Origin: a virus
Direction: 5' to 3' (one strand)
IMG/VR virus record: IMGVR_UViG_3300045988_079349
DNA: 64,000 nucleotides
The translations under genes and the position numbers were made by a program. This document shows, piece after piece, positions 19,482 to 24,049 of this stretch. Positions within the stretch are counted from its first letter, which is position 1. Every line of letters starts with the position of its first letter. The notes beneath the pieces are model-generated. The model was not told the DNA's origin. It was given only the letters and a program-made list of their open reading frames with translations, and did not search any database.

Positions 19482-20204
19482 TTAAAAGAAGGGACAGATT
19501 GGCATTTCCTCTGTTTTATGTAGGTTTCTCTTGTGTCTCTGCTCAATATTTTTATATACTTCATACGGAGGAGTAATACGATATAGCAAAAAGTTATCAA
19601 GAGTTTTATAAGAAAAACCTAGATTCTCTTCATCTGAGAGTCCAGTTAATCCATCTTCTGGAACTTTTTCTATAAATTTCTCCGGTAGACCAAGTTCTAA
19701 ACCAATCTCTTTAACTTCTGTTACTGTGTAATTGTGCAGAATTGAAAAATCTCCCGCGGAATCACCAAATTTGGTTGAATAACCAACATAATTTTCACTT
19801 CTATTACAAGTGTTTGCAACTCTACCATGTCGAGCAGCCGCGATGGCATAAAGAATATTCATTCTTTCTCTTGCTGGAACGTTACTTACAACTTGAGGAA
19901 GATTACGAATATCAGAGGGTAGGGAGAAAAAAGTTGCTTTGCAAGCCTCTCCAATGTTGATATTATAATGTTCTTTAATGCCTAGATACTCAATAACTTC
20001 ATTTGAAATATCAATGTCTGATTGATACCCTTGTGGCATTTGAACTGCAATTACATTTTCTGGCCCAATAGCTTTACAAAGCAGTGCGGCAGCGACAGTA
20101 GAATCTTTTCCTCCAGAAATACCAATAACAGCTTTGCAGTCCGGGCCGTTGTCGATAAAATATTTTTTAATCCAGTTAATGATTCTTTGAACTCTTATTG
20201 TCAT
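19482..20204 (-). CDS. nadE: NH3-dependent NAD+ synthetase
   Basis: PP-loop GISGGKDST. Confidence 0.85.
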   Translation of the reverse strand: MTIRVQRIINWIKKYFIDNGPDCKAVIGISGGKDSTVAAALLCKAIGPENVIAVQMPQGYQSDIDISNEVIEYLGIKEHYNINIGEACKATFFSLPSDIRNLPQVVSNVPARERMNILYAIAAARHGRVANTCNRSENYVGYSTKFGDSAGDFSILHNYTVTEVKEIGLELGLPEKFIEKVPEDGLTGLSDEENLGFSYKTLDNFLLYRITPPYEVYKNIEQRHKRNLHKTEEMPICPFF

Positions 20205-20209
20205 AAGAT

Positions 20210-21799
20210 TTACTCTCCCATCAGTCGATTCTTAATTGTATAAAAATCTTCCTCGTTTTCGCGTACAAAAACACCATCTTTTACTTTGAATTTCATTACA
20301 TTATCCTTATATTCGATGGCTTCTTTAAGAGTAAGATTTTCAACAAGCCTATATTGGCCCTCTGAGTCTTTAACAACCGCTACGCATCCACGAGGAGATT
20401 TTTTCCCAGGATCGGTTTTTGGCATCTTGTAGATTTGGATTTCATCTTCTCCAAGAATACAATCGGTAGCCTTAATTGCATAGCCTCTAGTGTCACGAGT
20501 TACATATTGATAAGTATATGCGCCAATTCCAAAACAGATATTTGATACTGAAATAGAATTATTGACACACCAATTACATATTTTTTCAGTGATCTCGGGA
20601 GTGATCGCATCGCCATAAATAACACGAATACAAGAGGGAAGCTCAAAATAACCCTTTCTATTAAGGTTGCCGCCAAAAGTATCAAAGAGACTGACAAGAG
20701 TTCCTTTACCCTCCGGGGAGTCAGGATCAACAGCAAAACTTGTGTCCCCGCAAATGATTTTTACTGGATCTCCGCTATCGGGGCGGATGGAAAGGCATCC
20801 ATCCCGCTGCTCGATAATGTCTCTCAATGCAGGAACAATTTTAGATACTACACCCCAATAATCATATGTATCTGCTACATAAGTCATTGTCCCAGTAGGC
20901 TGAATATTGATAAGAAGATGGCGCAGGAAGAGCATCTCAGCAATAAGATTAACTTCCCAATTTTCAGAGAGGCAAGTATTGAGTAGAGCTTGCTCCTCGG
21001 CTTCTAGCTCACCATTGAACATCTGCGCTCTTTTCCATGCTACACCCTGTTCAACAACAGAGTGCTCCAGAGATGGAGTTCCCATTAGAGGAGGATTATT
21101 CTCTAAATCTGCTCCATAATATTTCTCCAAAAGAAGATTAGAACCAATGGTCGCAGTCCTATCAAAAGACAAAGCGTGCGCGGCGCCAGAGATATAGCCC
21201 GCTTCAAGTGAAGTGTGACCGCGGAGAGAGAAGTCACCGCACATATGAGGGAGAGCAGACATATCGTCACAGGTCATCTTAACATAAGGCTCGATTAGCT
21301 TACGTCGATAGAAGGCTGTCGTGGCAGAAGTAGAAGGAAGCCAGTTATTTGCACTCCACTGATCTTCAATAAACTGCGGAAGCCATGCAAATTCAGGATC
21401 AGTAGAAAAGATAACATGATCTGGAATACCGATAGGAAGAAGTGTACCTTCGGGAACTCCCATAATTGAAATGGGAAGATAGCCAAGCTCATAAAGTTTC
21501 CTAAACTTGCTGAAATCTGCATAGCCAGGATGGAAAGTATCCTTGATTACCCTGTTCCACTCGCTTTCAAGCAGATCAATGGGCTGATTAAAAAATTCTG
21601 CCTGCCAGTAATTAAGCAGTCGCTGGATGGTATATTGATGGCCAAACACCATAGTTTTGGCGCAGTCTTTATGATATTTATTGCTGCGAGCAGTCCAAGT
21701 AGAATACACCATCTTTGCGTCGGCAGGCTGCATTTTAACCGCATGACCAATCTTATAATAGTCTGCCGCAAACATAGGTGCTACATCAAAGAAACTCAT
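20210..21799 (-). CDS. nadV: nicotinamide/nicotinate phosphoribosyltransferase (NAMPT/PncB family)
   Basis: 529 aa; N-terminus ADYYKIGH...YSTWTARSN...VFGHQY resembles NAMPT DSYKVTHY...YSYFECR...VFYGLQY. Confidence 0.75.
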   Translation of the reverse strand: MSFFDVAPMFAADYYKIGHAVKMQPADAKMVYSTWTARSNKYHKDCAKTMVFGHQYTIQRLLNYWQAEFFNQPIDLLESEWNRVIKDTFHPGYADFSKFRKLYELGYLPISIMGVPEGTLLPIGIPDHVIFSTDPEFAWLPQFIEDQWSANNWLPSTSATTAFYRRKLIEPYVKMTCDDMSALPHMCGDFSLRGHTSLEAGYISGAAHALSFDRTATIGSNLLLEKYYGADLENNPPLMGTPSLEHSVVEQGVAWKRAQMFNGELEAEEQALLNTCLSENWEVNLIAEMLFLRHLLINIQPTGTMTYVADTYDYWGVVSKIVPALRDIIEQRDGCLSIRPDSGDPVKIICGDTSFAVDPDSPEGKGTLVSLFDTFGGNLNRKGYFELPSCIRVIYGDAITPEITEKICNWCVNNSISVSNICFGIGAYTYQYVTRDTRGYAIKATDCILGEDEIQIYKMPKTDPGKKSPRGCVAVVKDSEGQYRLVENLTLKEAIEYKDNVMKFKVKDGVFVRENEEDFYTIKNRLMGE

Positions 21800-21882
21800 A
21801 AAATCTTCCTTTCCTTATTTCTTTATTATATTATAACATATATTTTTATAAAAATAAAAAGCTCTCATAAGAGAGCTTTTTA

Positions 21883-22251: not shown

Positions 22252-22697
22252 TTTAGAATCTCCCCAACAACAGTGCTTACAATTTTCATATCAGCTTTAC
22301 CTTTGAGTGCCGCAGAAACATACTTCATAATCGCACCTCGGTTTGCTTTAAGGAGATCTATACCTGCGGCAGCTGCGATTTCTCTTACTCTTGTTTCAAT
22401 CTCTGTTTTATCTGTAAGCAGCTGTGGAGCACACATTTTTACGATTTTCATATCCTCTTGATATTGATGCAACTTCTCAGAATAGTTAGCGGGGCAGGTA
22501 TCAATCATTTCTTGCACAGTTTTTTGATACTTAATAAGAGTTTCATCAATTAACTGCTCTGTTAGTTCCACTCTTCCCTTCGGAGTAATTGTTGCTTTCT
22601 GACACGAATCAATCATGTCAGAAAGCACTCTCTTTGTATTTACGTCTCCATTTTTAAGAGCTGCAATTTTTAGTGCTTGAAGCTTTTCAATAGTCAT
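22248..22697 (-). CDS. GatB/YqeY domain protein
   Basis: 149 aa; YqeY-like helical pattern and ...KGKADMKIVSTVVGEILK terminus. Confidence 0.55.
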   Translation of the reverse strand: MTIEKLQALKIAALKNGDVNTKRVLSDMIDSCQKATITPKGRVELTEQLIDETLIKYQKTVQEMIDTCPANYSEKLHQYQEDMKIVKMCAPQLLTDKTEIETRVREIAAAAGIDLLKANRGAIMKYVSAALKGKADMKIVSTVVGEILK

Positions 22698-23506
22698 CGA
22701 ACAATTTCTACCTTTCCTCTAGTATCCCACTCAGGCTTAAAGATGCTATCAGTGGTAAAGATTTTCTTTACAATATCCTGATTATACATATCACCTTCAA
22801 CCATAGTATGTTCTGCATGAGTGACGTAAAGATAAATATTTTTTGCTCCTGCTTCTTTTAGAGCGTTTGCCGCGTGATAGAAAGTTCCTCCCCGAGAGCA
22901 AATATCGTCTACAATTAGAACACCCTTATCTTTAACCAACTCACCATTCATTAGTTGTAGACCAAGAATTTTTCCAGTAGACCAATCCCTCTTTTTAATT
23001 CCAAAGGCGTATGGAAGATTAATTGCTGGAGTGGAATATCTCTTCATAGCTCCCTCGTCCGGGAAAAATAGAACGGGAGTTTCTTTTTCATAATGCTCAA
23101 AAAGTTTGATAGCCTCTTTGATTTCTCCAATAGGAGTAAGATCAATTACCCTATCGAGCAGAGCTAATGCTACATTAGAATGAGCATCTCTTACAATGAC
23201 TTTATCGAAGTGAAGACCATTGATTACTTGACAGAAATATTTAAGGGTAAACACATCTTCAAGTTCTTGCACTCTATCCATTCTTGCATGAGGAATATAT
23301 GGCATATCGAGCCTCAAGGGACAATCTTTAAAGTGTCCCTTTACGCAAATTAGAGTGAACAGTTCTGCATCGTTCTCATACTCCCAAAGAACGGTATCGT
23401 AATCAAAATAATTGGGCGGCATATTAATATGCAGCGTTCCATCGGGAAAATGATTTTGCTCAATTACATCTGTCCAATGACTGCGCGTGTTAATCAGACT
23501 AATCAT
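22694..23506 (-). CDS. prs: ribose-phosphate pyrophosphokinase (PRPP synthetase)
   Basis: PRPP-binding loop VLIVDDICSRGGT. Confidence 0.8.
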   Translation of the reverse strand: MISLINTRSHWTDVIEQNHFPDGTLHINMPPNYFDYDTVLWEYENDAELFTLICVKGHFKDCPLRLDMPYIPHARMDRVQELEDVFTLKYFCQVINGLHFDKVIVRDAHSNVALALLDRVIDLTPIGEIKEAIKLFEHYEKETPVLFFPDEGAMKRYSTPAINLPYAFGIKKRDWSTGKILGLQLMNGELVKDKGVLIVDDICSRGGTFYHAANALKEAGAKNIYLYVTHAEHTMVEGDMYNQDIVKKIFTTDSIFKPEWDTRGKVEIVR

Positions 23507-23509
23507 TTC

Positions 23510-24049
23510 TTAATCCTCCACATCAATCTGTTGAGCTTTGAAAATAGTTAGCGCTGCCTCATGCGATTCTGGAGTTACTCCTGCGCACGCACTAGAATGA
23601 ACGATAATTCTAGTATTTGGCAACGCTGCACGAAGCATAACCGCGTTAGCCATAACGCAGATATCGGTACAAAATCCGCAGATATGAATTTCTACTTCCT
23701 CTGGATTCTTCATCTTTAGAGAATCATATACCTCATTAACCATATCGGTACTGCCAAAGGTGTCTTTTTCATAATAATTAAACTTGTTATTCAACGCAAT
23801 CACGACTCTGGAATCCATACACCAGCCCACGCTTGCCTTAATACAATGTTTAACAGGAAGTTTCTTTCCTTCCAAAGTATCGAAGTAATCGTCATCATGG
23901 GTATCCATGGTACAAATAATTTCTTCCCAACAGAATCGTTTAATTAGATCAACAATATTAGGAACTGCGGCATCCGCCTCCTTTGTACCTAGCGCCCTAG
24001 TGATGAAATCATTTTGAGCATCAACAATTATAAGTATCTTTCTATACAT
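23510..24049 (-). CDS. pncA: nicotinamidase / isochorismatase-family hydrolase
   Basis: KILIIVDAQNDF and catalytic Cys region ICGFCTDICV. Confidence 0.7.
   Translation of the reverse strand: MYRKILIIVDAQNDFITRALGTKEADAAVPNIVDLIKRFCWEEIICTMDTHDDDYFDTLEGKKLPVKHCIKASVGWCMDSRVVIALNNKFNYYEKDTFGSTDMVNEVYDSLKMKNPEEVEIHICGFCTDICVMANAVMLRAALPNTRIIVHSSACAGVTPESHEAALTIFKAQQIDVED

Follow-up and report, generated by a model that had tools for sequence, protein, structure and literature searches.

Which route to NAD+ is encoded by the block of NAD-metabolism genes at positions 19482–24049 of the IMG/VR virus record IMGVR_UViG_3300045988_079349, of which 64,000 nt (the window) of a whole genome of ∼133–150 kb were analysed here? 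NAD+ depletion is among the commonest outcomes of bacterial anti-phage immunity, and an earlier note on this DNA had described the block as a phage NAD+ salvage or reconstitution island of Preiss-Handler flavour, to be seen against NAD-depleting defences and composed of a nicotinamidase, a phosphoribosyl pyrophosphate (PRPP) synthetase, a NAMPT- or PncB-like transferase, NadE and a YqeY protein. In outline that description holds: six genes are confirmed, a four-gene set among them recurs elsewhere, a nicotinamidase stands at the start and NadE at the end, and phage NAD+ reconstitution in the face of such defences is the right reference. The chemistry in the middle of the route appears to be different. 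We propose that the island is probably a phage-borne, deamidated form of the NARP1 pathway, which would rebuild NAD+ from ADP-ribose (ADPR) and nicotinamide by way of nicotinic acid.

In NARP1, Adps converts ADPR and ATP to ADP-ribose pyrophosphate (ADPR-PP), and Namat joins ADPR-PP and nicotinamide to yield NAD+; the phage operons concerned, annotated as 'Prs + Nampt', encode these two enzymes, and the pathway is known from phages Bas63, SPbetaL1 and FADO (Osterman et al. 2024), with Namat structures available as 9w5x and 9w5w (NAR 2026). In the scheme proposed here, a defence NADase would split NAD+ into ADPR and nicotinamide. The nicotinamidase PncA would then convert nicotinamide to nicotinic acid and NH3, an Adps homologue would form ADPR-PP from ADPR and ATP, a Namat variant carrying Ala216 and Ser243 would join nicotinic acid and ADPR-PP to give nicotinic acid adenine dinucleotide (NaAD) and pyrophosphate, and NadE would complete NAD+ from NaAD, NH3 and ATP. 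The substrates of the second and third of these four steps, and NaAD as the intermediate, are what we infer from the residues and gene neighbourhoods described below.

The transferase and its pyridine pocket

The gene at 20210–21799 (minus strand, as are all genes in the region of interest) encodes a NAMPT-like protein of 529 amino acids (PF04095, 3.6e-24) that matches phrog_448 at 8.9e-136. Its best sequence match in the PDB is SPbetaL1 Namat (9w5x/9w5w, 4e-97), with human NAMPT at ∼1e-39, and the top fold match of its AlphaFold2 model (pLDDT 91) is again 9w5x, with a TM-score of 0.93. The catalytic core, comprising Asp13, Tyr15, Phe190, Arg193, His246, Arg339 and Asp341, is kept. True phage PncB proteins carry both an NAPRTase_N and an NAPRTase domain, and the Pfam scan of the 529-residue protein found no NAPRTase_N domain (PF17767), PF04095 alone being matched; it is not a PncB, one of the identities suggested in the earlier note.

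The defining feature of Namat is a selectivity clamp that holds the ADPR-PP adenine (PMC12774641). In the window protein the clamp helix reads GAYTYQYVTRD (residues 426–436, 20492–20524 on the minus strand), which is the Namat adenine-recognition signature with Ser replaced by Ala at the second position, and the clamp loop reads SNKYH, its Lys41-Tyr42 pair being one of the types allowed by the same definition. As judged from these residues, the protein bears the published clamp signature of a Namat. With the ADPR-PP clamp kept and a Namat as the closest structure, PRPP-dependent transfer, the activity previously assigned to it, is unlikely to be its main role.

The nicotinamide pocket of Namat is formed by Phe189, Arg192, Asp215, Ala242, Arg306, Asp13′ and Tyr15′ (PMC12774641), and five of these seven residues are conserved in the window protein. 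The two exceptions, seen in the alignment to SPbetaL1 Namat, are Ala216 (codon 21152–21154) and Ser243 (codon 21071–21073), both on the minus strand, which correspond to Asp215 and Ala242 of Namat and to Asp219 and Ala244 of NAMPT. Asp215 hydrogen-bonds the amide of nicotinamide, and the D215A change cuts NAD+ formation from nicotinamide 8.1-fold in SPbetaL1 Namat (PMC12774641). The equivalent Asp219 of human NAMPT is decisive for substrate specificity (PMC7096376); the D219S mutant is recorded with switched substrate affinity and the D219A mutant without activity (PMC4919578). On this alignment the canonical NARP1 nicotinamide pocket, that is, Asp215 together with Ala242, is absent from the 529-residue protein. 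Since it lacks the residue by which Namat binds nicotinamide, one that helps to set Namat's acceptor substrate, the island does not belong under canonical NARP1. Position 213, which is Arg in the window and Arg, Lys or Asn in phages, was also considered as the site of a basic, carboxylate-binding signature; the idea was dropped, since the Clostridium chromosomal enzymes keep Gly there.

The Adps homologue, the nicotinamidase and the NAD+ synthetase

The 270-residue protein encoded at 22694–23506 (minus strand) is annotated as Prs by homology (PF00156, 4e-09; PF14572, 24.5 bits, below the cut-off of 27). Among phage families it matches that of Adps (phrog_619) at 3.6e-66. With SPbetaL1 Adps, an enzyme verified by biochemistry, it shares 37% identity and the catalytic Lys162, which is Lys171 here and stands in an invariant alignment column. 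With TIGR01251, for which the cut-off is 113, the window protein scores 90.2 bits and SPbetaL1 Adps 106 bits; all NCBIfam Prs equivalog models fall far below their cut-offs for the window protein, SPbetaL1 Adps likewise fails the Prs thresholds, and the best cellular Prs in the PDB is matched at only 1.1e-17. NCBIfam holds no dedicated Adps or Namat models; Prs and NAMPT-family models alone match. Scoring below every curated Prs threshold, as a verified Adps does, and matching phrog_619, the protein is by these comparisons an Adps homologue and probably not the PRPP synthetase that had been named. The labels 'Prs' and 'NAMPT/nicotinate phosphoribosyltransferase' are therefore misleading for genes of this kind, which is a warning for annotation.

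The 179-residue product of 23510–24049 (minus strand) belongs to the isochorismatase family (PF00857, 5e-20). The putative catalytic triad (Asp10, Lys95 and Cys131) and metal site (Asp49, His51 and His68) do not vary among four homologues sharing 40–57% identity, and they align with those in the Pyrococcus horikoshii pyrazinamidase/nicotinamidase structures 1ilw and 1im5 and in 6a8l. With an Asp-Lys-Cys triad and a metal site, the protein has the sequence hallmarks of a PncA nicotinamidase. Such proteins are rare in phages: PncA homologues occur in just 7 of 50,697 phage records, all of them human gut metagenomic, compared with 1542 records in the same collection that have an Adps/Prs homologue and 2024 that have a Namat/Nampt homologue.

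At 19482–20204 (minus strand) lies the gene for a single-domain NadE of 240 residues (PF02540, 4.8e-46), which scores 152 bits with TIGR00552 against a cut-off of 63.65 and carries the PP-loop motif SGGKDS at residues 30–35. There is no glutaminase domain, and the best PDB matches are NH3-dependent NadE enzymes. Domain, PP-loop and lack of a glutaminase domain together identify it, at the level of sequence, as a predicted NH3-dependent NAD+ synthetase.

Association of the pocket state with PncA and NadE

Three sets of loci were compared: those retrieved by searching with the transferase, those retrieved with PncA or NadE and, as a control, those retrieved with canonical Namats. Among the Namat homologues were 232 distinct sequences with Ala (209) or Ser (23) at position 215, hereafter the A/S type, and position 242 is Ser in every one of the 232; the catalytic core is otherwise unchanged. 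Most of these homologues come from loci that also hold PncA or NadE. Where the surroundings of A/S-type loci were read, 139 of 145 hold both PncA and NadE and the remaining six hold one of the two, several of these six loci being short or ending close to the module. Canonical loci, 90 in number (10 + 80), have Asp or Glu at 215 and Ala at 242, and none of the 90 has PncA or NadE within ∼10 kb of the Namat gene. The A/S and canonical types are separated in 199 of 200 neighbour-joining bootstraps; a short-clamp subgroup, found in 14 of 200, is itself unsupported. A convergent Asp-to-Ala change in the window's own lineage was rejected, as the A/S types form one clade.

Within this clade sequences have diverged to ∼30% identity and the partner genes have been retained, in the orders PncA-Adps-Namat-NadE, Adps-Namat-NadE-PncA and Adps-PncA-Namat-NadE. 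Four contexts were reached through the transferase alone, and all four combine PncA, an Adps-like gene and an A/S-type transferase, with NadE adjacent in three. They are a Clostridium beijerinckii chromosome (the one without adjacent NadE), a metagenome-assembled genome (MAG) of the Oscillospiraceae in which the module lies beside rpmG-secE-nusG-rplK, a phage-like contig (L265/L266) in which a NADAR-domain gene (8621–9499) sits between the A/S-type Namat and NadE, and a contig with PnuC. These four contexts, together with 13 transferase-query loci and 78 genome loci, make up the unbiased subset of A/S-type loci.

The same operon slot in other phages and in bacteria

The earlier note had assumed that NadD or NMNAT would be supplied by the host or encoded elsewhere. 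In the proposed route neither these enzymes nor PncB would be required, because ADPR-PP already carries the adenylyl group. A search for NMNAT, NadD and NadM within the 64-kb window, by Pfam scans and a NadD profile, found none. The scans covered 28 further window open reading frames (ORFs), with TAG translated as Gln where needed. The scanned ORFs of at least 130 residues gave no match to the CTP_transf_like family, and NadD, NMNAT, NadR, NadM and PncB were all absent from them, ∼11 ORFs (three tail-fibre-like ones at 37655–41271 and several of 130–315 residues in the tRNA region) lying outside the scan. Over all six-frame window ORFs, a local NadD profile gave nothing better than E=0.69 and a profile built from phage PncB proteins gave no significant match.

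Other gut-phage loci fill the same position differently. The order PncA-DUF5662-PncB-NadD-NadE, with PncB and NadD confirmed by Pfam, was found in 15 loci of the architecture tally, and Clostridium acetobutylicum has the operon nrtR-pncA-pncB-nadD-nadE (Rodionov et al., PMC2330246). Examples of such classical Preiss-Handler phage contigs are L126 (6450–10702), whose PncB carries a GIY-YIG/NUMOD3 homing-endonuclease module fused at its N terminus, and L047 (9998–12315). The slot between PncA and NadE holds either PncB with NadD or Adps with an A/S-type Namat, with no mixture, and none of the Adps/Namat(A/S) loci examined contains NadD. PncB and NadD turn nicotinic acid into NaAD, so the simplest reading is that Adps and the altered Namat would do the same, starting from ADPR.

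In a scan of GTDB genomes, 78 of 80 loci are of the A/S type and the two canonical-type loci consist of Adps and Namat only. The usual order in Clostridium is NrtR-Adps-PncA-Namat(A/S)-NadE. Carriers of NrtR-Adps-PncA-Namat(A/S), with or without NadE, include C. beijerinckii, C. carboxidivorans P7, C. tertium and C. tetanomorphum among others (L183, 4910–9470; L268–L347). An Oscillospiraceae MAG contig (L268, 148,971 bp) holds a 76%-identical copy whose genes are ordered as in the window, which hints weakly at the host. ADPR is the most effective effector of NrtR and PRPP is without effect (PMC2330246). The chromosomal A/S-type enzymes keep a perfect clamp motif, GSYTYQYNTRD, from which it can be argued that ADPR-PP would still be their donor substrate.

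Comparison with known NAD+ routes

The island shares with NARP1 an Adps homologue with its catalytic Lys, a clamp-bearing transferase for which Namat is closest by sequence and by fold, the order Adps then Namat in one operon (here with YqeY and a gene for a protein with two transmembrane segments between them) and independence from NMNAT. It departs from NARP1 in having Ala216 and Ser243 in place of Asp215 and Ala242, in framing the pair with a nicotinamidase and an NAD+ synthetase, as none of the 90 canonical loci does, and in the transferase falling in a separate clade (199 of 200 bootstraps) with NaAD rather than NAD+ as its predicted product. With classical Preiss-Handler synthesis (PncA, PncB, NadD and NadE; PMC11662467, PMC2330246) it has in common the first and last enzymes, the predicted entry of NaAD into NadE and, in bacteria, the operon position and the linkage to NrtR. 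Unlike in that pathway, PncB and NadD are replaced by Adps and a Namat variant, and the ribose-phosphate-adenylate part would come from recycled ADPR instead of PRPP and ATP. NARP2, the Nampt-Nmnat pair of Vibrio phage KVP40, is likewise a case of a phage NAMPT-family enzyme raising NAD+. Its Nampt, however, prefers PRPP and is accompanied by Nmnat in 94% of carrier phages, whereas the window has a clamp-bearing enzyme with Adps and no Nmnat in the scanned ORFs. Precedents for NARP1 operons that gain further enzymes, and with them further usable breakdown products, are provided by NARP1-AP, with the Macro-domain ADPR-1′′-phosphate phosphatase Adpp, and by RyDEP-NARP1. Those additions act on the ADPR side, converting ADPR-1′′-phosphate or cyclic ADPR to ADPR, whereas in the window the added enzymes would handle the pyridine side (nicotinamide to nicotinic acid, NaAD to NAD+) and the central transferase has itself changed. 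Neither a Macro nor an RyR domain turned up in the window module. Most likely, the island follows NARP1 in its core and Preiss-Handler salvage at its first and last steps.

Canonical NARP1, NARP1-AP, RyDEP-NARP1, NARP2 and phage Preiss-Handler clusters have all been published. The literature covered, which is incomplete, contains no description in which nicotinamidase, nicotinic acid, NaAD or NadE is joined to NARP1 or ADPR-PP, and none of these four terms appears in the NARP papers that it includes. On balance we are inclined to regard the 529-residue protein as the first nicotinate ADP-ribose transferase, which with PncA, Adps and NadE would make up a fourth, deamidated route, abundant in gut phages and found in the chromosomes of many Clostridium species. 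If so, an enzyme activity and an intermediate (NaAD) would be new to the NAD+ arms race, beyond NARP1, NARP2 and their add-ons, and hundreds of gut-phage genomes (IMG/VR loci) that pair a nicotinamidase and NadE with an apparent NARP1 would be explained. It would also seem that NARP1 chemistry has been fitted to hosts in which nicotinamide is quickly deamidated, Clostridia for example, and we speculate that clostridial hosts salvaging nicotinamide through PncA may make nicotinic acid the available pyridine. The Clostridium operons, mostly lying by an NrtR gene, point to an unrecognized bacterial route for recycling ADPR to NAD+, so that the pathway would be at once a phage counter-defence device and a bacterial recycling pathway. 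Cultivable Clostridium species with matching operons make the idea directly testable.

Alternative explanations

Taken at their annotation, the genes would form a PRPP route, in which Prs makes PRPP, the NAMPT-like enzyme forms nicotinic acid mononucleotide (NaMN) or nicotinamide mononucleotide (NMN), a host NadD or NMNAT adds AMP and the phage NadE completes NAD+. Pfam and NCBIfam do put the two proteins in the Prs and NAPRTase/NAMPT superfamilies, SPbetaL1 Namat uses PRPP in vitro when ADPR-PP is absent, and PDB entries show human NAMPT with nicotinic acid and PRPP (6ta0) or with NaMN (6ta2). This route is nevertheless very improbable. The supposed Prs falls under every curated Prs cut-off, as verified Adps does, and belongs with phrog_619; 97% of Adps-clade genes lie close to one for a Namat homologue; the adenine clamp retained by the transferase is needed for no donor other than ADPR-PP; phages on the PRPP route bring their own NadD and the Adps/Namat(A/S) loci do not; and the bacterial operons are linked to NrtR, which responds to ADPR and not to PRPP. 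A second possibility keeps canonical NARP1, running from ADPR and nicotinamide, and treats PncA and NadE as separate functions that feed the host PncB and NadD or remove excess nicotinamide. All catalytic and clamp residues of Namat are present, D215A SPbetaL1 Namat keeps some activity, and known NARP1 operons do gain accessory genes such as Macro phosphatases and RyDEP. We consider it improbable all the same, since a co-expressed nicotinamidase would destroy Namat's own substrate. It also does not predict that Ala or Ser at 215 and Ser at 242 should be invariant in 232 sequences of ∼30% identity and tied to PncA and/or NadE, with none of the 90 canonical loci so associated, nor that the set should be retained while gene order shifts, with PncA first or last or, in Clostridium, between Adps and Namat.

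The most serious rival, possible though still unlikely, accepts the deamidated biochemistry and disputes its purpose: the island would be a metabolic booster acquired from Clostridia that recycles routinely formed ADPR and nicotinamide and so sustains NAD+ during replication of a large phage, and no counter-defence device. The same operon does occur in a chromosomal housekeeping context (rpmG-secE-nusG-rplK in the Oscillospiraceae MAG) and under NrtR in many Clostridium isolates, gut jumbo phages have been reported with whole NAD+ synthesis pathways (PMC11662467), and the module has been lost in a near-identical phage. Against this, canonical NARP1 and NARP2 overcome Thoeris, DSR1/2, SIR2-HerA and SEFIR experimentally, and making NAD+ from ADPR pays only while NAD+ is being cleaved. 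By analogy with these systems, the role of the deamidated route in the phage would most likely be NAD+ restoration after cleavage by SIR2, TIR or SEFIR proteins, and we favour this use over plain NAD+ boosting.

Several observations weigh against the deamidated route as we propose it. The substrate choice attributed to the A/S type is read from two residues and from gene context; the D215A change in SPbetaL1 Namat lowers activity with nicotinamide and does not abolish it, and Ser243 might partly stand in for the lost hydrogen bond. The deamidated route costs the phage one extra ATP. The association with PncA and NadE is partly circular, because most A/S loci were retrieved with PncA or NadE as bait, and the A/S state seemingly arose once, so that the covariation represents one maintained evolutionary event and not many independent ones, in a neighbour-joining tree built without a true Nampt outgroup. 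The commonest phage subgroup has insertions of 9–25 residues in the clamp helix, which makes the use of ADPR-PP there less certain. Similarity to PDB entries does not separate NaAD-type from NaMN-type for the window NadE, which scores equally against Pyrococcus NadE (2e18, 4.5e-30) and Francisella NadE (3fiu, 3.7e-30), the latter of which we take to be an NaMN-preferring NMN synthetase. Lastly, the IMG/VR contig IMGVR_UViG_3300045988_075249 (L024) is 99.3–99.7% identical to the window across 16.6 kb and has a 3.4-kb deletion spanning window positions 19859–23285, at an imperfect microhomology of 12–13 bp, that takes the 3′ part of Adps, YqeY, the two-transmembrane gene, the Namat variant and the 5′ part of NadE. 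A near-identical phage without most of the module shows it to be dispensable or variable in nature, provided that the deletion did not arise in assembly.

Operon layout

Six co-directional, tightly spaced ORFs on the minus strand occupy 19482–24049. Those listed in the earlier note are all present, although the NAD genes are not strictly consecutive as it had stated, because an ORF of 122 codons (21883–22251, minus strand) that it overlooked sits between YqeY and the NAMPT-like gene. Along the strand the gaps between genes are 3, −4, −4, 83 and 5 bp, a Shine-Dalgarno-like sequence lies upstream of each of the six, and the Adps-like and Namat-like genes are 895 bp apart. Directly after the NadE stop codon comes a terminator-like hairpin (19453–19483, minus strand) with a 13-bp stem, a 5-nt loop and a T-rich tail, which is the likely 3′ end of the operon and is followed by a promoter-like site. 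The layout is compatible with, and does not prove, a single transcription unit from PncA to NadE. That the cluster is no chance grouping is indicated by the recurrence of the PncA/Adps/Namat/NadE set, in 139 of 182 related loci and in many bacterial genomes.

The two remaining genes of the block encode a YqeY/GatB-tail-like protein of 149 residues (22248–22697, minus strand; PF09424, 2.6e-10; phrog_1460) and, in the overlooked ORF, a protein with two predicted transmembrane segments (hydropathy peaks at about residues 46–72 and 82–108). The latter has no match in Pfam, PHROG or NCBIfam and has homologues in close relatives only; YqeY occurs in ∼15 of the 182 loci of the architecture tally, mostly near relatives of the window. 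As most four-gene loci lack both, they were ruled out as core pathway members; both are lineage-specific inserts, with YqeY probably outside the core pathway. In a phage that relies on a Gln amber-suppressor tRNA, YqeY might concern tRNA handling and not NAD. Downstream of NadE and adjoining RNA-repair genes lies a metallophosphoesterase gene (18684–19418, minus strand). It recurs directly after NadE in relatives and was considered as an Adpp-like accessory; the terminator-like and promoter-like sites separate it from NadE.

Genome setting

The window is part of a large gut phage known from metagenomes only, and a megablast search of positions 19000–24500 against the 50,697 phage records gave no nucleotide match. 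It contains 30 tRNA genes, in an array at 35241–55153 that includes a CUA (amber) suppressor, tRNA-Sup(CTA), at 36133–36207, and ∼55 minus-strand ORFs are open only if TAG is a sense codon, features that fit a code-15 phage. None of the six operon genes has an in-frame TAG, so that they would be translatable before suppression sets in. Among named phages the closest is Phass-1 (OQ749652), a 'code 15' phage of the human gut, which has a pncA-prs-nampt operon downstream of its own tRNA array and whose NAMPT-like protein is 65% identical to that of the window.

Immediately upstream of PncA, an ORF for an endonuclease-like protein of 290 residues (24135–25004, minus strand) has three 'LTGQKFGxLTxL...CxCxCG' repeats and a C-terminal 'FDFYI...EFDG' module. 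The frame stays open only when six in-frame TAGs count as sense codons, and a Pfam scan gave no match. The ORF is probably a mobile insertion, since it is missing in the relatives L004–L007, where the gap between Rnl and PncA is ∼200 bp; a paralogue with 11 TAGs lies at 56281–57225 (minus strand). The NAD module is flanked by RNA-repair-like genes on the minus strand (16693–19418, 25091–26365 and 27767–29427), a set made up of an RNA ligase, a Thg1-like tRNA-His guanylyltransferase, a P-loop polynucleotide-kinase-like protein, three metallophosphoesterases and an RlaP nucleotidyltransferase. Further along, a protein of 811 residues (30776–33208, minus strand) has Major Vault Protein shoulder and repeat domains (PF11978, 8e-18; PF17795; PF01505), and it adjoins a DUF2828/DUF7788 protein of 507 residues (33591–35111, minus strand), a pair that is unusual for a phage.

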